In this document: positions 12 through 21,593 of the stretch, in pieces
How positions within the stretch are numbered: the first letter of the stretch is position 1
How the letters are laid out: the number at the start of each line of letters is the position of its first letter
DNA from: an uncultured delta proteobacterium
Lineage (GTDB): Bacteria; Myxococcota; Myxococcia; Myxococcales; Myxococcaceae
Direction of reading: 5' to 3'
Assembly: GCA_963776345.1 (NCBI GenBank)
Contig: CAVZMH010000015.1
Coordinates: 32,001-96,000 of the forward strand
Length of the DNA: 64,000 bases
Made by a program: the position numbers and the translations under genes
Notes under the pieces: model-generated
Database searches by the model: none
The model's input: only the letters and a program-made list of their open reading frames with translations
What the model was told of the DNA's origin: nothing

Positions 12-2558
12 ATGGCCACCGCGCTGGTGAAGGTCGACGACAGCGAGGCCGCGCTCCGGCACGAGTTCGGCCCCACCGGCCGCGCGCTGGGGCGCCGGTA
101 CTGTCCGTACGTCCGGGTGACGCCAGCGGCGGAGGCCGAGCTGCGGCGGATCAGCGCCGAGGGCTTCGTGGTGCACGTGCAGCGGACCGCGGCCTGGGTG
201 AGCTTTCTCTACCTCGCCTGGCTCCTGGTCAGCCGCGCCCTCCCGCCGATCCGCGCCGTGGTGAACATGCGGCGGTGGTTCGGCCGGCCCTGGCGCCGGG
301 TGGCGCAGCGCGGACCGCTCGACGTCCGCTTCACCTTCGCCCGGAGGCAGGGCGGCTCGGCGCTGGTCTTCCTCCAGCAGACGGCGATCGGGCGGGCCGG
401 CGGCCGGAGCGGCCGGGAGGACCCCTTCCCCGCCCTGGTGGCGATGGCCCGGAAGAGCGACCGGCCGGTGTTCCTCGTCCCCGAGCTGGTGGTCTGGGAG
501 AAGTGGAGCGTCCGGATCAAGCCCGCCTGGGCGGACTACGTCTTCGGGACGCCCGAGGCGCCGGGCTTCCTCCACTCGGTGCTGGCCTTCCTCCGGAACC
601 ACAAGCGGGCGCAGTTCCGGGTGGGCGAGCCCATCGACCTCCGGGCCTTCGCCGCGCAGAACCCGGAAGAATCGGACGTGGTGGTCGCCCGGAAGGTCCG
701 CGCCGTGCTCCACGTGCATCTCGCCCGCGAGACCCGTGCCGTCTTCGGGCCGCCGTACAAGCCGCCCGAGCGGGTCATCGAGGAGACGCTGCGTGACCGC
801 ACGCTGCGCCAGACCATCGAGCAGACCGCCACCCGCAGCGGGAAGGACCCGGCGGCGCTGGAGCGCGAGGCCCGGCGGAACCTCAATGCCATCGCCGCAC
901 GGCTGCACCCCACGGTGCTCGCGGTCGTCGCGCCGCTGATGGGCTGGGTGTTCGACCGGATCTACGACGGCATCAACGTGGACGAGGCCGGGCTGGAGCG
1001 CGCGCTCCGGGCCGGACTCAACGGCGCGCCGATCGTGCTCTGCCCGAGCCACAAGAGCCACGTGGACTACCTGGTCATGTCCTGGGTGCTGTGGAAGCGT
1101 GGCTACCAGGTGCCGGTGGTGGCCGCCGGGGCGAACCTCTCCTTCTTCCCGCTGGGGCCGGTGCTCCGGCGCGTCGGGGCGTTCTTCCTCCGCCGCAGCT
1201 TCGGCACCGACCGGCTCTACACCGCGACCTTCAAGGCCTACGTCAAGAAGCTGGTGCGCGACGGCGTGCACCAGGAGTTCTTCCCCGAGGGCGGCCGCTC
1301 CCGGACCGGCAAGCTCCTCCCCGCCAAGCTGGGGCTGCTCGGCTGGGAGGTGGACGCGGTCCTGGAGGGGGCCCGGAACGACCTCGCCTTCATCCCGGTG
1401 GCCATCGATTACGAGAAGATCGTCGAGGGCAGCAGCTACAGCAGGGAGCTGGTCGGCGGGGAGAAGAAGCCCGAGGACGTGGGCGCGCTCATCCGGGCGC
1501 CACAGGTGCTGCTCCGTCGCTACGGCACCATTCACCTGCGCTTCGACGAGCCGGTGCTCCTCCGCGACTTCATGCGGGGCCGCGGCCTGGAGGACCCGGG
1601 CAGCATCGGCGAGGAGGAGAGGCGCGGCCTGGTCCGGGCGCTGGGGCACCGCATCATGTGGGGCATCGCCCGCGTGTCCACGGTGACGCCGCACGCGCTG
1701 GTGAGCAGCGCCCTCCTCGCGCACCCCGGCCGGGGGCTGCCAGCCTCCGCGCTCGGCGCGCGGGTGGACGCGCTCCGGGGGATGTGCCTCGAGGAGGGCT
1801 CGGCGCTGTCCACCGGCCTCGCCGGAGCCCCGAGCGACCCGACCGTGGCGGGCCCGGTGCGCACCGCGGTGCTCGGCTTCGTCGAGGACAAGCTGGTCCG
1901 CACCGAGCAGGCCAAGGGCGAGACGGTCTACCTGCCGGTGGACGAGCGGCGGGTCCAGCTCGCCTACTACAAGAACACCATCCTGAACCTGATCGCCCCG
2001 CGCGCGCTGGTGGCCTGCGCCGTGCTCCGGGGCGTGCTCGACGGCACCGAGGAGTCGGTCCGGACCAAGGCCCTCTTCCTCTCCCGGCTGTTCAAGCTGG
2101 AGTTCATCTACCGGGTGGGCGCGCCCTTCGAGATCATCTTCGCCGAGACGGTGGACAAGCTGGTGGCGGCCGGGCTCCTGGTGCGGCGCGACGGGTCGCT
2201 CCTCCCCCCCGATGCGCAGGCCCGCGGCGTGCTCGAGTTCCTGGCCGACATGATCCGCGACTACCTGCAGTCGTACCTGCTCGCCGCGCTGACGCTGGAC
2301 GACCTCGCCACGGGCCCCATGGACCGGAAGGCGTTCCTCCGGGCCGCGCTGGAGACCGGGCGGATGGAATTCCTCTCCGGGCGCCTCGACGCCGCCGAGG
2401 CCATCAGCCGGACCACGCTGGAGAACGCGCTGGCCTGGCTCCTCGAGCAGGAGATGGTGGCCGAGCGGGACCGAAAGCTGGTCCTCGGCCCCACCGCGGA
2501 GCGGCCCGAGCCGCGCGAGGCGTTCCGCGACGAGCTGCGCGCCTACCTCGACCGGTAG
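12..2558 (+). CDS. plsB: Glycerol-3-phosphate acyltransferase (PlsB/DHAPAT-like)
   Basis: 848 aa; acyltransferase motifs PSHKSHVDY (HxxxxD), GAFFLRR and FFPEGGRSRTGK. Confidence 0.85.
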   Translation: MATALVKVDDSEAALRHEFGPTGRALGRRYCPYVRVTPAAEAELRRISAEGFVVHVQRTAAWVSFLYLAWLLVSRALPPIRAVVNMRRWFGRPWRRVAQRGPLDVRFTFARRQGGSALVFLQQTAIGRAGGRSGREDPFPALVAMARKSDRPVFLVPELVVWEKWSVRIKPAWADYVFGTPEAPGFLHSVLAFLRNHKRAQFRVGEPIDLRAFAAQNPEESDVVVARKVRAVLHVHLARETRAVFGPPYKPPERVIEETLRDRTLRQTIEQTATRSGKDPAALEREARRNLNAIAARLHPTVLAVVAPLMGWVFDRIYDGINVDEAGLERALRAGLNGAPIVLCPSHKSHVDYLVMSWVLWKRGYQVPVVAAGANLSFFPLGPVLRRVGAFFLRRSFGTDRLYTATFKAYVKKLVRDGVHQEFFPEGGRSRTGKLLPAKLGLLGWEVDAVLEGARNDLAFIPVAIDYEKIVEGSSYSRELVGGEKKPEDVGALIRAPQVLLRRYGTIHLRFDEPVLLRDFMRGRGLEDPGSIGEEERRGLVRALGHRIMWGIARVSTVTPHALVSSALLAHPGRGLPASALGARVDALRGMCLEEGSALSTGLAGAPSDPTVAGPVRTAVLGFVEDKLVRTEQAKGETVYLPVDERRVQLAYYKNTILNLIAPRALVACAVLRGVLDGTEESVRTKALFLSRLFKLEFIYRVGAPFEIIFAETVDKLVAAGLLVRRDGSLLPPDAQARGVLEFLADMIRDYLQSYLLAALTLDDLATGPMDRKAFLRAALETGRMEFLSGRLDAAEAISRTTLENALAWLLEQEMVAERDRKLVLGPTAERPEPREAFRDELRAYLDR

Positions 2559-3038
2559 TCAGCGCGGCGCAATCAGCGCGTCGAGCTTCCGGGCCAGCGT
2601 CGCGTTGGAGACCAGGCCCTCGTACCGCCCCACCATCGTCCCGTCGGCCGAGACCAGGAAGGTGGCGGGCACCGTCTCCAGGCCCAGGGGCGCGAGCATC
2701 TCGCTCTCCGCCGCGGCGACGGGCATCGTGCGGAGGCCCATCTTCTCGGCCGCGACCCGAATCCGGGTGCGGTCGGGGGCGATGGAGACGGCGATGAACC
2801 CCACCCGGCCCTCGTACTGCTTCGCCAGCTTCTCCAGCTCGGGCAACTCCCGAGCACAGACGCCTCAGCCGGGCATCCAGAGGTTCACCAGCCACGGCCG
2901 GCCGCGCATCGTCTTCGGGGTGACGCTCGCGCCGTCGAGACCGCGCGCGCTGAAGGAGTCGGGCAGCGGCCGCGGGGTGTAGGAGGGCTGGCAGGCGGCG
3001 CCGAGCACGAGCAGGAGGAGAACGGGCAGACTGCGCAT
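2559..3038 (-). CDS. TlpA/redoxin-family lipoprotein, probable selenoprotein (UGA=Sec at codon 58, UxxC)
   Basis: ATG at 3038 gives MRSLPVLLLLVLGAAC (lipobox)...PWLVNLWMPG-TGA(2867-2865)-GVCARELPELEKL...VPATFLV. The TGA aligns with the first Cys of the TlpA NFWAxWCxxC motif. 159 aa with readthrough; the ORF track shows only the C-terminal 95 aa. Confidence 0.85.
2837..2855 (-). promoter_or_regulatory. Candidate bacterial SECIS hairpin
   Basis: Minus strand GCTCGGG-AGTTG-CCCGAGC: perfect 7-bp stem; loop starts 16 nt after the in-frame TGA and has G at position 2 followed by U. Confidence 0.7.
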
Positions 3039-4248
3039 GCCTGGTCCTCGACGCTTTCACAGCCCTCACGGGGCTGGCAAGGTGCTCCGGCCGTCACCCA
3101 TCGTGCTCGAGCCCACCCTTCCCCCGTCCGACGCACCCGAACCTCCGGTACCCGCCGAGCGGCTGGGATGGCTCGCGCTGGTCGGCGCGCTGGCGCTCTT
3201 CTACCTGGTCGGCGTGCCGCTGCAGATGGTGAGCGCCGGCGCGGGCATCTGGTTCGCCGAGGTGTTCCTCTTCCTCGGCTCCGGCTGGGCGCTGACCCGC
3301 TGGAGCGGCCGGGCACCGGCGCCGTACCTCGGGCTTCGATGGCCCGGGATCCGGCCTCTCCTGTTCGCGCTCGGCGTGGCCGTGGCCAACTACTTCGCGC
3401 TGGTCATCCCGCTGCAGTTCCTGGTCCAGCTGGCCGCCCCACAGTCGTGGGTGGAGATGTTCGACCAGACCCAGGTGTTCGAGCGGAGGAGCGGCCTCGA
3501 GCTGTTCCTGGCCATGACCGGCGCGGTGGCCGCCGCGCCGATCGGCGAGGAGGTCGTCTTCCGGGGCCTCTTGCTCCAGGGCCTTCTCCGCCGGGGCGTG
3601 GCCGTCATCCCGGCGGTGATCGCCTCGGCGGCCATCTTCAGCCTCTGCCACGTCAACCTCATCGGGCTTCCCGCGCTCTTCGAGCTGGGGGTGGTCTTCG
3701 GGCTCCTCTACGTCCGGACCCGGACCGTGCTTCCGGGGATGGTGGCCCACCTGGGGAGCAACCTGACGGCCACCCTGCTCTACGTCGCCGGGAAGGGACA
3801 GGAGCCGGGGCCGGTCGAGCTGTCCGCGCTTCCCGCCATCCTCGGCGCGAGCGCTGCCGGATGGGTGGTGCTGGGCCTCGTCCTGTCCGCCGCCCGCCGG
3901 GTGCCCGGGGCCTGGGGTCAGCGCCGGGAGGAGGACGTGGCCCGACCCCGGATCCCGCTCTCGCGGGCGCTCGCGCCCTGGGCCGTGGCGGCCGCGGCCT
4001 CGCTCGTCGTCTGGGGCCTCGCGGACCGCCGCGGCCTCGAGCTCGACCTCGCGGACGTCCAGGCCCGGCTGCCGCCGCCCCGCTCCAGCGAGCCGGGATG
4101 GGCGCGCGAGCGCCGGGATGAGGTCGAGACGCTCCGGGAGGACGTGCGCCAGGGAAAGGCGAGCCTCGAGACCTACCGCCAGGCGCGCCGCGTGCTCGCC
4201 GGAGCGCTGGCAGCCGACGCCGGGACCCCGGACGGGGGAGCGCCCTGA
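3037..4248 (+). CDS. CPBP/CAAX (Abi) intramembrane metalloprotease
   Basis: Multiple TM segments; motifs EEVVFRG, FSLCH, HLGSN. True start is probably GTG 3082 or 3103. Confidence 0.85.
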   Translation: MPGPRRFHSPHGAGKVLRPSPIVLEPTLPPSDAPEPPVPAERLGWLALVGALALFYLVGVPLQMVSAGAGIWFAEVFLFLGSGWALTRWSGRAPAPYLGLRWPGIRPLLFALGVAVANYFALVIPLQFLVQLAAPQSWVEMFDQTQVFERRSGLELFLAMTGAVAAAPIGEEVVFRGLLLQGLLRRGVAVIPAVIASAAIFSLCHVNLIGLPALFELGVVFGLLYVRTRTVLPGMVAHLGSNLTATLLYVAGKGQEPGPVELSALPAILGASAAGWVVLGLVLSAARRVPGAWGQRREEDVARPRIPLSRALAPWAVAAAASLVVWGLADRRGLELDLADVQARLPPPRSSEPGWARERRDEVETLREDVRQGKASLETYRQARRVLAGALAADAGTPDGGAP

Positions 4249-4267
4249 CCGCCGGTGGCTCCCGCGC

Positions 4268-4483
4268 TCAGAAGGCCTTGTAGCGACGCACCCGGAGCAC
4301 CGGACCGACCATGGCGATGCCGGCTGCCGCGGCGTCCACATCGCCGTCGATCTCCACCCGCTGCCCTTCCTTGAGCAGCGACGAGCGGCCACCGGCGAGC
4401 TGGTACGTCTTCCCGTCGTCCCCGGCGAGCACCCAGACGCCCATCTCCACGTCGCGGAACTCGACCGTCCCCCGGATCCTCAT
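4268..4483 (-). CDS. Small hypothetical protein (DUF5818-like, predicted beta-rich)
   Basis: MRIRGTVEFRDVEMGVWVLAGDDGKTYQL..., 71 aa; ATGA overlap with the S8 peptidase stop. Confidence 0.7.
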   Translation of the reverse strand: MRIRGTVEFRDVEMGVWVLAGDDGKTYQLAGGRSSLLKEGQRVEIDGDVDAAAAGIAMVGPVLRVRRYKAF

Positions 4484-6252
4484 CGCCGCGTCTCTCGCCG
4501 GAGCATCGCCCGGGACAGCAGCGCCGCCAGGAGCCCGTTCAGCACCAGCCAGGGCCGGGCGAGGAAGGTGAAGGGAAGGTAGGCGATGCTCGGCGCCTTC
4601 GCCCAGGCCGCGTAGAGCAAGAATCCCGCAAACCCGAGCGACAGTCCGGCCACGACCGGCCGCAGCCCCCGCCACTTCAGCGCGAGGAGCGCCGCCACGG
4701 TCGGGACCAGCGCGCTGTACATCAGGGGGCTCGCGAGCCGCCCGCGCCCGAAGAGGATGCGCCCCCAGTCGGGCAGCGGCAGCGAGAGCACCTCGGCGGC
4801 GGCCGGCGGGTGCCCGACGTAGCGCTGCCAGAGAAGCTTGAGGAACCACAGCCCGACCGTGCTCAGGAGCAGCGGAAGGAGCGTCGCGGGGTTGAGCAGC
4901 ACGTTCAGGTAGCCCGGGCGCACCTTGGTCTTCAGCGAGATCAGGAGCAGCGCCAGCAGCGCCGCGCTCCAGGCGAGCGGCACCCAGTCGACCGGGCCAG
5001 CGGTCTTGCCGAGCGCCTCCAGCGCTCCGAGCGCATCCAGCCGGCCGTGCCCGGCCCGCGGAGTCCAGGCGCCCCCGGACCCGGCGCCCTCGAACAGGGC
5101 CCTCTCCACCTCGTCGGGCGTCCTCGCCCCCGCGGCGAAGAGCAGCGCCGCCACCCCCGCCACGTGGGGCGTGGCCATGGACGTGCCCTGGTACTCGGCG
5201 AGGACCGGCTTCCTGAAATCCGCGCGGTCGAGCGTCGCCTGGAGGATGCCGTTGCCCGGACCGAGCTTGGTGTTCCCACCCGGCGCGACGATGTCCAGCG
5301 CCTCCCCGTAGGACGAGTACGGCGCGAGCGCCCCATCCGGCCCCACCGCGCCCACCGCCACCGCGCCGGCGTACGCCGCGGGGTACGAGACCTGCCCCAG
5401 CCCGCTGTTGCCCGCGGCGCAGACCACCACCGCCCCCTTGCTCCGGGCGTAGGCCACGGCGCGCTCCATGACGCCCGAGTACCCGGGGCCGCCGAGCGAG
5501 AGGTTCAGCACCTTGGCCCCGTGGTCCACCGCCCAGCGGATGGCATCGGCGATGTCCGCCGAGTTCCCGAGCCCCGAGCGGTCCAGGACCTTGAGCGGCA
5601 TGAGCCGCGCCTCGAAGGCGACGCCCGCGACGCCCACGCCGTTGTTGGTGCGCTGGGCGATGGTGCCGGCGACGTGGGTGCCGTGACCGTTGTCGTCGTT
5701 GGGATGGTCGGTGTCGTTGACGAAGTCGTAGCCCGGGACGAAGCGCGCGCCCGTCAAGTCGGGCACCCGCACGAACTCCTCCCGGTCCTCGTAGGCGATG
5801 CCGGTGTCGATGACCGCGACCACCACGCCCTTGCCCCGCGAGCGCTCCCAGGCCTCGGGCATGTGGATCATCCGGAGGTTCCACTGCTTCGGGAAGTCCG
5901 GGTCGTTCGGGGTGAAGGCCAGCGCCTCCACCTGGACCAGCGGCTCGGCCTCCTCCACCTCCGCGTCACCGCGAACCCGGGCCAGCGCGGCATCCACGTC
6001 GTCGACGCCGTCGGCGATGGCGATGCCCGAGCGCAGGCCCTCGACCGAGTTGAGGTGGAGCGGGAGTCCCCAGCGCCGCGCTCGCTCGGCGATCTCCTCG
6101 GCGGGCGTACCGTCGCGGAAGTCGACCACCAGCGCGTGCGGCACGGCGGAGGCGCGGGCCGTCCCCGGGGGAGTCGCCTTGGTGTGCGCGGGGGCGGGCG
6201 CACACGCCGCCGCGAGCAGCACCACTCCGCTCAGGCACCAGCCAGACCGCAT
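4480..6252 (-). CDS. S8 subtilisin-like serine peptidase, lipoprotein with C-terminal membrane domain
   Basis: Catalytic triad motifs VAVIDTG, HGTHVAG, GTSMATPHVAG; LAAAC lipobox; GGAAGGAG RBS before ATG 6252. Confidence 0.92.
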   Translation of the reverse strand: MRSGWCLSGVVLLAAACAPAPAHTKATPPGTARASAVPHALVVDFRDGTPAEEIAERARRWGLPLHLNSVEGLRSGIAIADGVDDVDAALARVRGDAEVEEAEPLVQVEALAFTPNDPDFPKQWNLRMIHMPEAWERSRGKGVVVAVIDTGIAYEDREEFVRVPDLTGARFVPGYDFVNDTDHPNDDNGHGTHVAGTIAQRTNNGVGVAGVAFEARLMPLKVLDRSGLGNSADIADAIRWAVDHGAKVLNLSLGGPGYSGVMERAVAYARSKGAVVVCAAGNSGLGQVSYPAAYAGAVAVGAVGPDGALAPYSSYGEALDIVAPGGNTKLGPGNGILQATLDRADFRKPVLAEYQGTSMATPHVAGVAALLFAAGARTPDEVERALFEGAGSGGAWTPRAGHGRLDALGALEALGKTAGPVDWVPLAWSAALLALLLISLKTKVRPGYLNVLLNPATLLPLLLSTVGLWFLKLLWQRYVGHPPAAAEVLSLPLPDWGRILFGRGRLASPLMYSALVPTVAALLALKWRGLRPVVAGLSLGFAGFLLYAAWAKAPSIAYLPFTFLARPWLVLNGLLAALLSRAMLRRETRR

Positions 6253-15611: not shown

Positions 15612-16294
15612 GGCTCCCTGGCCTCCTGGCCTCGACGTGGGTCCTCTTGAAAAAGGACCTGCTCCTCGAGTGGCGCTCGCTCGCGCGCGTCAACGCGCTG
15701 CTCTTCTTCTCGCTCGCCACCTTGCTCCTCTTCTCCTTCGCGCTCGGGCCGGACACCGCGCTGCTCCGGCGGAACGCCGGCGGCTACCTGTGGCTCGCGC
15801 TCCTGCTCGCCAGCGTCCTTGCCCTGGGCGAGTCGTTCCGGGTGGAGCGCGAGAACGCCACGCTGGAGGGGCTGCGGCTGGTGCCGGTGAACGCCCGGTC
15901 CATCTTCCTGGCCAAGGCCATCGCCAACGCGGTGCTGCTCGCCGCGCTCGGCGTGCTCCTGGTCCCGGTGCTGGTGGCGCTGCTCGACGTGCGGATCGTG
16001 CTCTCCTGGGGGCAGCTCCTCACCCTCATCGCGCTCGGCTGCCTGGCCATCGCCGCGCCGGGCACGCTCTACGGCGCCATCGCCAGCCACGCCCGGGCCC
16101 GGGACGTGCTCCTTCCGCTCCTCCTCTTCCCCATCCTCATCCCCGCCCTGGTGGCGGCGGCCAAGGGCACGGCGCTGGTGTTCGAGGGGGACCCGATGGG
16201 TCAGTTCCCCTCATGGCTCGCCCTCCTGACCAGCTTCGATCTGATCTACTGGGGGCTGGGGGTCCTGTTGTTCCCCCGGGTTGTCGAGGAGTAA
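15608..16294 (+). CDS. ccmB: Heme exporter permease CcmB
   Basis: LLKKDLLLEWRS, SFRVERENATLEGL, LLPLLLFP; ATGA overlap. Confidence 0.92.
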   Translation: MRLPGLLASTWVLLKKDLLLEWRSLARVNALLFFSLATLLLFSFALGPDTALLRRNAGGYLWLALLLASVLALGESFRVERENATLEGLRLVPVNARSIFLAKAIANAVLLAALGVLLVPVLVALLDVRIVLSWGQLLTLIALGCLAIAAPGTLYGAIASHARARDVLLPLLLFPILIPALVAAAKGTALVFEGDPMGQFPSWLALLTSFDLIYWGLGVLLFPRVVEE

Positions 16295-16313
16295 GCACCA
16301 TGGGTTCCTTCCT

Positions 16314-17003
16314 ATGAGCAAGCCACTCCGAATCGGGTTCGTGCTCCTCACGCTCGCCCTCCTCGTCTCCGGGGCGTGGATCGGCCTGGCCTGGGCGCCT
16401 CCCGACCGCGAGATGGGTCACGTGCAGCGCATCATGTACATGCACGTGCCCGCGGCCTGGATGGCGCTCCTCGCGGCGACGATGAACTTCGGCACCTGCG
16501 TCTCGTACCTCTGGAAAGCCTCGTGGAAGAAGGACGCCTTCGCCGAGGCCACCGCGGAGGTGGGGCTGCTGTTCGGGACCATCGCCATCCTCCTCGGCTC
16601 CATCTGGGGGCGGCCGACCTGGGGCGTGTACTGGGCGTGGGATCCCCGTCTGACCACCATGGCGATCCTCCTGGTGGCCTACGCCGGGTACCTCGCGCTG
16701 CGGCGCTTCGTGGACGACCCCGACCGGCGCGCGGTCTGGTCCGCGGTGGTGGGCATCATCATCGCGGTCGACGTCCCGGTCGTGTACTTCAGCGTGAAGT
16801 GGTGGAAGAGCCTCCACCAGGTGCAGTCCACGCCCAAGACGGTGGACCCGCAGATGGTGCTCGCGCTCCGCTGGAACGCCGTCGCCTTCCTCGCCGTCCT
16901 GATCATCTTCCTCGTCGCCCGCTACCGCATCGCGCTCGCCTCGCGGATGCGGGAGACGACCGTGCCGGATGCGCCGACCGGCGCCCGGGAGGCAGTCGTC
17001 TGA
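16314..17003 (+). CDS. ccmC: Cytochrome c biogenesis protein CcmC
   Basis: RIMYMHVPAAW; WWD motif GSIWGRPTWGVYWAWDPRLT; WWKSLHQ. Confidence 0.95.
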   Translation: MSKPLRIGFVLLTLALLVSGAWIGLAWAPPDREMGHVQRIMYMHVPAAWMALLAATMNFGTCVSYLWKASWKKDAFAEATAEVGLLFGTIAILLGSIWGRPTWGVYWAWDPRLTTMAILLVAYAGYLALRRFVDDPDRRAVWSAVVGIIIAVDVPVVYFSVKWWKSLHQVQSTPKTVDPQMVLALRWNAVAFLAVLIIFLVARYRIALASRMRETTVPDAPTGAREAVV

Positions 17004-17158
17004 TGAACACCCTGAACCTGGTTCTCGCCGCCGTCGGCGAGGGACGCATCCGCGGCGGCTGGGAGTACGTGTGGACGGCGTACGGCATCGCCTGGACCGG
17101 CCTGTCGCTCTACGCCCTGTCCTTGTGGGCCCGCTGGCCGCGGGAGGAGCGGAAGTGA
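17003..17158 (+). CDS. ccmD: CcmD-like small membrane protein
   Basis: 51 aa with WEYVWTAYG and one TM helix, between ccmC and ccmE with overlapping start/stop. Confidence 0.75.
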   Translation: MNTLNLVLAAVGEGRIRGGWEYVWTAYGIAWTGLSLYALSLWARWPREERK

Positions 17159-17624
17159 ACCCCACCACCCGCAATCGCCTGGTCGCCCTCGGCGCGCTGC
17201 TGGTCGCCGGCGCCGGCCTGTCCTTCGTCGCCTTCGGCAACATCGGGCAGAACCTGGTCTTCTACTGGACCCCGGGAGAGATGCTCGCCCAGGGCAGCAA
17301 GGCGTACGGGCCCACCATCCGCCTCGGGGGCGTGGTCCAGCCGGGCAGCCTGCAATGGGACGCCGCGCACACCCACCTCACCTTCCGGGTGGCGGACAGC
17401 GCCCAGCCGGGCGCGCCCTCGGTGGTGGTGCAGTCGCGCGAGACCCCGCCGCAGATGTTCCGCGAGCGGATCGGCGTGGTGGTGGAGGGAACGTTCGACA
17501 AGTCCCAGACGTTCACTTCGTCCAGGCTCATGGTGAACCACTCCAACGAGTACCGGCCGCCGAAGCCGGGTGACGGTCCCGACAAGTGGAAGACCACCGT
17601 CTCCGCTCCCACCGCGGAGGCCCG

Positions 17625-17628
<4 letters not shown>
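17155..17628 (+). CDS. ccmE: Heme chaperone CcmE
   Basis: NLVFYWTP, IRLGGVVQPGS, PQMFRE..VVVEG, heme-binding HxxxY (HSNEY). Confidence 0.92.
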
Positions 17629-19633
<2,005 letters not shown>

Positions 19634-19637
<4 letters not shown>

Positions 19638-20191
19638 GGAGGCGCGGGCTGTGGATCGGCCTGTCGCTGGCCGCGGTGACCGCGGTGCTGCTCTTCGTCC
19701 TGGCCAAGGGCTTCGGGCGCGATCCGCACGCGGTCCCCTTCCAGCTCCGGGGCAAGCCCGCCCCCGACTTCACCCTGAAGCGGCTGGACAACGGCGCGCC
19801 GGTGAAGCTCTCGGACCTCAAGGGCAAGCCCCTGGTCCTGAACTTCTGGGCCAGCTGGTGCGGGCCCTGCAAGATGGAGCATCCGGTCATCGCCTGGGGC
19901 GCCAAGCGGTTCGCACAGGAGGTGCAGTTCTACGGGGTGGTGTTCGAGGACACCGAGGAGAACGCCCGGGCGTTCGCCGGGAACCCGGACCCGAGCTTCC
20001 CCCAGCTCATCGACGAGCGCTCGCGGATGGCGGTGGACTACGGTGTGACCGGTGTGCCCGAGACGTACTTCATCGACGCCCAGGGCATCCTCCGCGACAA
20101 GGTGGCGGCCCCCGTGGACCCGACGACGCTGATGGAGAAGCTCGCCGCCCTCAAGCAGCCGCCCGGGCCGGTCTCGGAGGTCGTCCGATGA
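19634..20191 (+). CDS. ccmG: CcmG/DsbE thiol-disulfide oxidoreductase
   Basis: N-terminal TM, LNFWASWCGPCKMEHP, YGVTGVPETYFID. Confidence 0.9.
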
Positions 20192-20655
20192 CCGCGCTGG
20201 TCCTGGGCCTGGTGCTGTCCGCCTACGCCCCGCAGCAGGCCGGGAGCGCGCTGCTCGATCCGCCGCGCGAGGCGCGGGTGCAGGCCCTGGGCAAGCAGCT
20301 CCGCTGCCCGATGTGCCAGGGCCTCTCCATCGCCGACTCGAACTCGTCCGCGGCCCGCGCCCAGATGGACAAGGTGCGGGAGCTGGTGGCGGCCGGGAAG
20401 ACCGACCGGGAGATCCGCGACTACTTCACCGCCCGCTACGGCGAGTGGGCGCTGCTCGACCCGCCGGCGAGCGGGATGAACGTCCTGGTCTGGCTGCTCC
20501 CCCTGGCGCTGCTCCTGGGCGGCGGCCTGGCCATCGCCCGGACCATGCGGCGGCCCGTCCCCGCCCCCGCGCCGGACGCGCCGGGAGCGGCCAAGGGGCA
20601 ACCACCGTCCGATGACCCGTACCTCGAGGCGGTGCGGGCGGAGATGCGCCGGTGA
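20188..20655 (+). CDS. ccmH: Cytochrome c biogenesis protein CcmH
   Basis: LRCPMCQGLSIADS, YFTARYGEWALLDPP. Confidence 0.93.
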   Translation: MTALVLGLVLSAYAPQQAGSALLDPPREARVQALGKQLRCPMCQGLSIADSNSSAARAQMDKVRELVAAGKTDREIRDYFTARYGEWALLDPPASGMNVLVWLLPLALLLGGGLAIARTMRRPVPAPAPDAPGAAKGQPPSDDPYLEAVRAEMRR

Positions 20656-21593
20656 CCGAGACCCACTGGATCCCGGGCATCGTCGTTCTCTCCCTCGGGC
20701 TCATCGGCGGGGCGCTCTACCTCCTGTTCTGGCGCAAGCCTTCCGCGGCCGGCCCGGCCGACCGCGTGAGCGACACCCAGAACCGGGTGGATTCGCTGCT
20801 GGCCCAGCTCCGCGAGCACCAGGGCGAGCGGCACCAGATGGACGCAGCCGCCTGGGAGGCCGAGCGCGACCGGCTGGAGCGGGCGGCGGCGGACGCGATG
20901 CGCACCCGGGACGAGGCGGCCGGGACGCCGGAGAAGTCGGCATCCGGGAAGAAGAAGGAGGCGCCGGCCCCTGCGTCCGCGACGCCCAGCGGCTTCTTCG
21001 GCCGGCACCCACATCTGGTAGGCGCCGCCTGGGGCGCGGGCGTGGTCGTCTTCTTCGGCGCGCTCGGGCTCTGGCTGTCGCAGGACCAGAAGCCGCGGGA
21101 AGCCGGCGACACCGCCACCGGGACCGTGGGCCGGGGCGGCACCGCAGCGGCGGGCCCCGAGGGCGAGGACCGGGACTTCCAGGCCGCGCTGGCCCGGGTG
21201 AAGGACAACCCGGGCTCGGACCTGCCGCTCACCTCCGAGGTGGTGCGCGAGCTCATCAGCCGGAGCGACTTCCAGCAGGCGCTCGAGCTCAACGAGCGGG
21301 CGCTCGCCGCGGATCCGTTCCGGACCGACCTGCGCATCCACCGCGCCTTCCTCAAGGTGGTCCAGGGCGAGAAGGAGGCCGGGATGGCGGAGCTGGGAAA
21401 GATCGCCGACCTCTACCCGGACGGCACCTCCGCGCTCATCTTCCGCGGGATGATCCACATGCAGGCCCGTGAGACCCGCGAGGCGCTGGCCGACTTCGAG
21501 GGCTACCTGGCGGTCACTCCTCCGCAGAACGTCCCGCCACAGATGCGGGCCGGCGTGGCCCAGCTCCGACGCGAGGTCACCGGAGCACCCTGA
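20652..21593 (+). CDS. TPR membrane protein (CcmI/CycH-like)
   Basis: Two TM segments, helical linker and TPR-like C-terminus; last gene of the ccm operon. Confidence 0.7.
   Translation: MTETHWIPGIVVLSLGLIGGALYLLFWRKPSAAGPADRVSDTQNRVDSLLAQLREHQGERHQMDAAAWEAERDRLERAAADAMRTRDEAAGTPEKSASGKKKEAPAPASATPSGFFGRHPHLVGAAWGAGVVVFFGALGLWLSQDQKPREAGDTATGTVGRGGTAAAGPEGEDRDFQAALARVKDNPGSDLPLTSEVVRELISRSDFQQALELNERALAADPFRTDLRIHRAFLKVVQGEKEAGMAELGKIADLYPDGTSALIFRGMIHMQARETREALADFEGYLAVTPPQNVPPQMRAGVAQLRREVTGAP

Follow-up and report, generated by a model that had tools for sequence, protein, structure and literature searches.

The window analysed here, a stretch of 64,000 nucleotides from an uncultured member of the Myxococcaceae, carries a redoxin gene on its minus strand. 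In the genome to which the window belongs (G000, 98% complete) this gene stands alone: its neighbour on one side, a plsB-like gene, is convergent and the one on the other side, which encodes a CPBP protease, is divergent, so that no local partner is indicated. The features recognised at the locus, with the evidence for each in brackets, are as follows:

2559..3038, minus strand: coding sequence of a TlpA/ResA-like redoxin of 159 aa, TGA read through at codon 58 (frame, Pfam and model)
3045..3049, minus strand: Shine-Dalgarno-like GAGGA, 6 nt 5' of the ATG (sequence)
2991..3038, minus strand: signal peptide of a predicted lipoprotein, residues 1-15, followed by Cys16 of the lipobox (Cys conservation among loci)
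2865..2867, minus strand: TGA in frame, codon for the predicted Sec58, which would be the attacking residue at the N-terminal side of UxxC (homolog column and CcmG alignment)
2856..2858, minus strand: Cys61, predicted resolving cysteine (invariant in alignment A2, 24/24)
2837..2855, minus strand: predicted upper stem-loop of a bacterial SECIS, 7 bp, loop AGUUG at 2848-2844 (fold and conservation)
2667..2669, minus strand: Pro124 of VPATF, predicted cis-Pro of the thioredoxin fold (invariant in A2; aligned to the ResA LP/T-Pro)
2559..2846, minus strand: 95-aa fragment as reported by gene callers, starting at a TTG inside the SECIS loop; an annotation artefact (database hits)

A ccm-type cytochrome c maturation cluster that includes a Cys-form CcmG lies at 16281-21593 on the plus strand, its gene names being read off the translations. 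A scan of positions 2300-4600 for promoters and terminators found nothing. Among the contigs listed for RNA run X16, which carry neither strand nor level, one covers 2976-3199 and none crosses the TGA; in the other RNA runs a fraction of 0.04-0.05 of the words was present. These contigs speak neither for nor against expression.

The interrupted frame and its predicted product

Read on the minus strand from the ATG at 3038, the frame gives MRSLPVLLLLVLGAAC...VNLWMPG-TGA-GVCARELP...VPATFLV...IAPR-TGA, that is, 57 codons, the internal TGA, 101 further codons and a TGA stop at 2561-2559. The original prediction had described a frame with a lipoprotein signal that runs from this ATG into VNLWMPG-TGA-GVC, and it is present as described; an ATG is likewise found 57 codons ahead of the TGA in 12 of the 13 loci of the same genus. 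By inspection, the N-terminal end is basic and is followed by a hydrophobic stretch and an [AGS]-C lipobox (MRSLPVLLLLVLGAA-C), here GAAC, with Gly instead of Leu at position -3. A Cys located behind a hydrophobic stretch, 40-46 residues ahead of the active site, occurs in 58 of the 60 family loci described below, preceded at -1 by Ala (38), Gly (19) or Ser (1), and this conservation makes export and lipid anchoring of the predicted protein likely. The residue at +2 differs among loci (Asp 24, Gln 14, Glu 12), and an inner or outer membrane location is therefore not predictable from the sequence.

The read-through product scores above the Pfam cut-offs for Redoxin (PF08534, 44.6 bits versus 26.6) and AhpC-TSA (37.7 versus 26), and Pro124 is invariant in A2, in keeping with the thioredoxin-fold C-terminus with a cis-Pro that had been claimed for the same frame. 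The TGA had also been placed at the first Cys of the CcmG of the same window (LNFWASWCGPC), and U58 does align there (29% identity, E 2e-16). An AlphaFold2 model, computed with Cys at position 58 from a 24-row alignment, reached a pLDDT of 93.7, and Foldseek matched it to structures of ResA, DsbF, CcmG and Etrx, with TM(target) values of 0.84-0.89 for ResA and DsbF. The top match was Mycobacterium tuberculosis DsbF (3ios, E 1.5e-11), with MPT53 at rank 16, and most of the other top ranks were held by ResA, which also gave the best profile scores. All NCBIfam scores are nonetheless below the respective cut-offs (ResA 47.6/170, DsbE/CcmG 38.7/123, TlpA 36.9/230 and StoA 29.4/210 bits). The protein falls outside the WAxxUGC selenoproteins (NF041054), its motif being UGVC and its relatives scoring 25-30 bits versus 300. 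The xx dipeptide of UxxC is highly variable in the family, and the GP or PP found in CcmG is mostly absent.

Conservation of the TGA and of the hairpin that follows it

A set of 60 Myxococcota loci from 58 genomes was assembled, from which further profile-search matches with one TGA were left out. The active-site column holds TGA in 50 of these loci and TGC or TGT in the other 10 (without the unpublished G233, TGA in 49/59, conclusions unchanged), counts that overstate the support because kin are not independent. No Trp codon or codon for any other residue occurs at this position. Such a codon was one of three findings named beforehand as refuting the original prediction, the others being an absence of selA, selB or selC and a base-call error, and none of the three came true. 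In the genus of G000 the TGA is kept in 13/13 genomes, at 63-99% identity, and it is retained in frame, with both halves of the protein conserved, at identities as low as about 33%. When 301 genomes of the phylum were searched with a profile, 48 gave a match at E<=1e-25. Most of these are in the same family, and several large families, such as f7 (0/40), gave none. Three loci came out of a metagenome scan with a single protein; two belong to the redoxin family, and each of these has TGA. A search of 1.84 billion representatives gave some 20 single-domain relatives of full length; every one is a Cys form, and neither U nor X was found among them. Two genomes of the set carry paralogs, G031 with two TGA-bearing copies (L077, L102) and G037 with one TGA copy and one distant Cys copy (L079, L103).

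The perfect 7-bp hairpin with an AGUUG loop 16 nt 3' of the TGA, also part of the original prediction, was found exactly so: GCUCGGG-AGUUG-CCCGAGC occupies +13 to +31, with seven Watson-Crick pairs, and a looser lower stem may reach across 2864-2827. The published bSECIS model requires a loop of 3-9 nt, a stem of 4-16 bp and a G in loop positions 1-2 and, in addition, a spacing of 16-37 nt and an MFE <= -7.5 (model as set out in the available part of PMC13188914); with a 5-nt loop, 7 bp, a spacing of 16 nt and -15.6 kcal/mol over 35 nt, the hairpin lies within all of these limits. Compared with shuffled sequences, the fold has just a mild advantage in short stretches (z -1.9 for 48 nt and -2.1 for 35 nt) and none in longer ones (z 0.19 for 68 nt and -0.57 for 88 nt), and Rfam returned no SECIS-type family, its single match being a chance one (E 0.97). 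Taken alone, the hairpin is weak evidence, the genome being 72% GC. When the 11 codons concerned were recoded synonymously with the codon usage of the genome, 865 of 200,000 draws reached seven Watson-Crick pairs, and 21 had these pairs plus an AGTT loop.

The comparison among loci is the strong part of the evidence on the hairpin, the fold of the single sequence being a mild one. All seven pairs are formed in 43 of the TGA loci and six of seven in the remaining 7, compared with 0-6 pairs in the Cys loci. The loop codon is TTG, TTT or TTA in 50/50 TGA loci and in 0/10 Cys loci, which have TTC, CTG, CTC, ATG or GTG instead; in G000, TTG makes up 1.7% of the Leu codons and TTT 2.4% of the Phe codons. 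Over the 25 TGA loci collected first, which make up 23 distinct rows, pairing was seen in 97.5% of the stem cells, versus 14-58% in slid controls, and three of the seven stem pairs were altered on both sides, in rows that include non-independent kin and with some of the covarying changes altering the amino acid too. Judged from these alignments, such synonymous constraint would be hard to explain by selection on the protein. In one locus, L096 (G178), GGAAGTTG (ARKL) replaces GGGAGTTG behind the TGA and the top stem pair is broken; this is either a true variant or a sequence error, and the near relative G231 keeps the stem intact.

Selenocysteine machinery and database records

The original prediction called for selA, selB, selC and selD, and all four are present in G000: SelA (E 1.3e-124), SelD (E 3.7e-113, with an in-frame TGA of its own), SelB (wing domain, E 1.8e-17) and tRNA-Sec (70.3 bits versus a cut-off of 47). 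Across the family, SelA was found in 47 of the 48 TGA genomes tested, the exception being G016 (89% complete), in which SelB was found. Five family genomes lack a SelA match and four of them carry Cys (G027, G071, G220 and G291, 92-99% complete); among the 31 family genomes of one survey, the SelA-less ones are precisely the three with Cys (G071, G220 and G291), and G027 (99% complete) has TGT at the column and neither SelA nor SelB was found in it. Six of the ten Cys loci lie in SelA-positive genomes, which indicates that Sec is not required for this redoxin family. On a quick tree, placing the Cys label requires 9 changes, and at least 3 of them are imposed by branches with strong support. 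As read from these sequences, this pattern would fit an ancestral Sec with repeated reversion to Cys; it is also possible that Sec was gained repeatedly in the family.

G000 encodes other candidate selenoproteins. A formate dehydrogenase-type molybdopterin protein with V-U-HGP (G000:C2:70968, minus strand) has its TGA followed by a hairpin topped A-GUU-U, a top that is identical in 9 members of the redoxin family and that serves as a useful internal control for the redoxin SECIS. There are also a peroxiredoxin with a signal peptide and an in-frame TGA (TDT-U; G000:C22:339744-340310, equal to L120:1745-2311, plus strand), an exported rhodanese-domain protein with an in-frame TGA (YCSNKL-U; G000:C15:401577-401987, equal to L121:1581-1988, minus strand), which has an 8-bp hairpin (loop GGUCG) behind its TGA and for which the best NCBIfam match is TsoB, far under its cut-off, and a SelT/SelW/SelH-family protein of 74 aa with CxxU, above the TIGR02174 cut-off (G000:C2:47118-47342, equal to L122:1619-1843, plus strand). 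This list is a minimum, the codon-bias scan for further TGA read-throughs being insensitive enough to miss both SelD and the peroxiredoxin. Contigs C3/C4 and C8/C9 of G000 share identical gene junctions pairwise, which suggests duplicated stretches in the assembly.

The truncation by standard gene callers that had been anticipated is general. The 109 matches of the protein search are pieces of 94-105 aa, 107 of them starting with MPEL or LPEL, i.e. at the TTG of the SECIS loop, and none of the 109 contains the active site. In M. xanthus the gene is split over records with adjacent locus tags (such as the pair QDE88944.1 and QDE88945.1), one piece having 65 aa and WAPG at its end, the other 95 aa. 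A GenBank record of Myxococcus fulvus / Corallococcus macrosporus, AEI66872.1, is titled 'thioredoxin family protein, selenocysteine-containing'; it is 93% identical to the C-terminal part of L062, whose read-through is in turn 44% identical to the window protein. The record belongs to the same family but is a truncated 95-aa C-terminal fragment without Sec. Its name shows that the Sec had already been recognised by some annotator, and our guess is that it was transferred from a curated Myxococcus annotation.

Fragments of this kind, including the 65-aa and 95-aa pieces of M. xanthus, are all that the databases annotate for the gene and are what would be expected if the TGA were a true stop, leaving a pseudogene or two short peptides. 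This reading is scarcely credible, since the TGA stays in frame to about 33% identity, always accompanied by the hairpin and the rare loop codons, and since a split would tear the active-site pair apart, with neither residue remaining on the C-terminal piece. A base-calling error, or a genetic code in which TGA means Trp or some other residue throughout the genome, has a practically negligible probability, and nothing was found in favour of either. The contig of run X1 differs from the window at 14 positions over 1001 nt and that of run X3 at 5 over 487 nt, all of them away from the TGA, where neither shows any difference; TGA terminates the redoxin gene itself and many other genes of G000, the sole tRNA of G000 with a TCA anticodon is tRNA-Sec, and homologs have Cys at the column but never Trp. 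What the comparative evidence points to is one conserved gene whose internal TGA is very likely read as selenocysteine at the catalytic centre of a putative thiol-disulfide enzyme anchored in the membrane.

Gene neighbourhood and possible function

A survey of gene neighbours was carried out on 38 loci, dropping ORFs with GC3 <= 0.80, which leaves G031a, G031b and G220 almost unassessed; domains were scanned in 99 ORFs, most of them from 129 cluster representatives. The plsB-like neighbour recurs in 14/38 loci, and this looks like inherited gene order and not like partnership. A gene combining DsbD_TM and thioredoxin domains lies within about 4 kb in 6/38 loci (five by Pfam and G178 by clustering), which come from two or three related groups and include two Cys loci; in G000 itself there are two DsbD_TM genes, elsewhere in the genome. 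In G178 (L096), G231 (L089) and G320 (L086) the Sec redoxin is found with CcdA/DsbD-thioredoxin, YeeE/YedE-type and anti-sigma genes, to which the first two loci add DsrE, a metallophosphatase/5'-nucleotidase (SoxB-like by reading) and an ECF sigma factor, so that these surroundings are possibly a sulfur-handling island.

The DsbD neighbours in 6/38 loci, together with the two DsbD_TM genes of G000, make an envelope reductase fed by DsbD/CcdA the somewhat more likely reading. The main rival is that the same selenoprotein acts as an envelope disulfide oxidase or isomerase, like actinobacterial DsbE/DsbF, which we consider unlikely. M. tuberculosis DsbF, the best Foldseek match, is oxidising and not reducing, and the rank of MPT53, the variable dipeptide mostly without the GP or PP of CcmG, and the 32/38 loci in which no DsbD neighbour was seen would all agree with such a role. 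However, ResA structures dominate the remaining top ranks and have the best profile scores, fold ranks fail to split oxidases from reductases, and DsbD/CcdA genes adjoin the redoxin again in separate rearrangements. It could also be that the exported Sec-peroxiredoxin is the specific partner of the redoxin, in an all-selenium relay DsbD -> Sec-TlpA -> Sec-Prx for the removal of peroxide. G000 does encode the peroxiredoxin with TDT-U, and an analogous envelope relay, ScsB(DsbD)-TlpA-PprX, has been shown experimentally in Caulobacter (available part of PMC3322552), but a query with the peroxiredoxin matched just 5 of 80 genomes at E<=1e-22 (TGA forms in four genomes of genus g50, plus a weak Cys match) and found it in 0/7 genomes of the same genus and 0/13 of g51, nearly all of which have the redoxin. 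The relay is accordingly very improbable, and as a conserved partner the peroxiredoxin is ruled out by the 5/80 count. At least as improbable is that the redoxin serves cytochrome c maturation as a second CcmG/ResA: ResA gives the best match by family and by structure, and multiheme cytochrome genes flank the redoxin in G020 and, by clustering, in G032 and G027, but the scores are far under the ResA and DsbE cut-offs given above, there are no ccm genes among the 99 neighbours scanned, and the window's ccm cluster includes a CcmG dedicated to this task. Because this dedicated CcmG exists, a general role in envelope repair or as an antioxidant is more likely than one in cytochrome c maturation.

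We regard as very probable, taken as a whole, the explanation that Sec is inserted by means of the hairpin into a predicted lipid-anchored envelope enzyme that is likely a DsbD/CcdA-fed donor of electrons to oxidised proteins. From established bacterial Sec biology, SelB would almost surely bind the G-containing loop and bring Sec-tRNA to UGA58. The protein would then, with high probability, be exported by the general secretion pathway, cleaved by signal peptidase II and lipidated at Cys16. Reasoning from fold and family, we lean towards a reaction in which the Sec58 selenolate would attack a substrate disulfide and Cys61 would resolve it to give an Se-S bond that DsbD/CcdA would re-reduce. 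A broader proposal, rather doubtful, is that the redoxins form an undescribed clade extending across the Myxococcales, with Sec ancestral and several reversions, often at SelA loss, and that they may be a selenium-dependent envelope reductant of aerobic soil predators. If the ancestral-Sec clade is true, M. xanthus becomes a tractable system in which to ask why an oxidising compartment keeps Sec.

Relation to known selenoproteins and redoxins

To our knowledge, what is known of exported redoxin selenoproteins with UxxC comes almost solely from prediction in uncultured bacteria. The presence of the family in cultured Myxococcus species means that a standard laboratory organism is at hand in which to test whether Sec is incorporated, in which membrane the protein lies, what its redox potential is and how a Sec-to-Cys swap behaves. 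Moreover, a systematic annotation error is corrected, as the active site is absent from all 109 close records and M. xanthus has its gene entered in two pieces. The use of the result lies in a gene mis-annotated across the Myxococcales, and a specialist would find little surprise in it: the window gene adds a further, well-supported case to a kind of selenoprotein that was known before and brings no new mechanism or class.

A search of the literature, excluding subscription journals, found no published study of the myxobacterial Sec redoxin family. The Anaeromyxobacter selenoproteins listed in PMC1794560, as far as the list is available, do not include this family by name. BSepDB (available part of PMC13326102) screened the genomes of M. 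xanthus and M. stipitatus by tblastn with catalogued representatives, so that the redoxin family may be among its entries.

The window protein has in common with Bacillus ResA, CcmG/DsbE, TlpA of B. japonicum and Caulobacter, pneumococcal Etrx1/2 and DsbF/MPT53 the extended thioredoxin fold (TM 0.64-0.77 by query length), the membrane anchor, the position of CxxC and the cis-Pro loop. It differs from them in sequence (about 18-29% identity), in having Sec for the first Cys and in lacking a Trp directly before this residue. Several families of UxxC TlpA-like or redoxin selenoproteins are catalogued in Table 1 of PMC13188914. The 'Redoxin family protein' selenoproteins (PF08534, UxxC) share the Pfam family and UxxC, and their representative also has a lipobox-like signal, but its active-site context, EGF-U-TVC, differs by eye. 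The 'Prx-like thiol:disulfide oxidoreductase' (PF00578, WP_010940744.1) likewise shares Pfam family and UxxC; its context, RGAW-U-PYC, differs by eye and it is longer, with no signal peptide evident. Another is the 'Thiol-disulfide isomerase-like protein' family (cd02966, UxxC) of the Sargasso Sea study (available part of PMC1088965), with which the window redoxin appears, by eye, to share a signal peptide with a lipobox Cys, a single TlpA-like domain and Sec as the first residue of UxxC. Its representative MDP6341533.1, as given in file 3 of PMC12013277, has a lipobox and WSPN-U-GQC, and the pattern W-x-P-x-U-x-x-C-x-x-E is, compared by eye, common to both proteins. The similarity to this family, judged by eye alone, is distant, and the window clade is set apart from it by its confinement to the Myxococcota in the genomes searched and by a conserved SECIS of its own (CGGGAGUU-CCCG).
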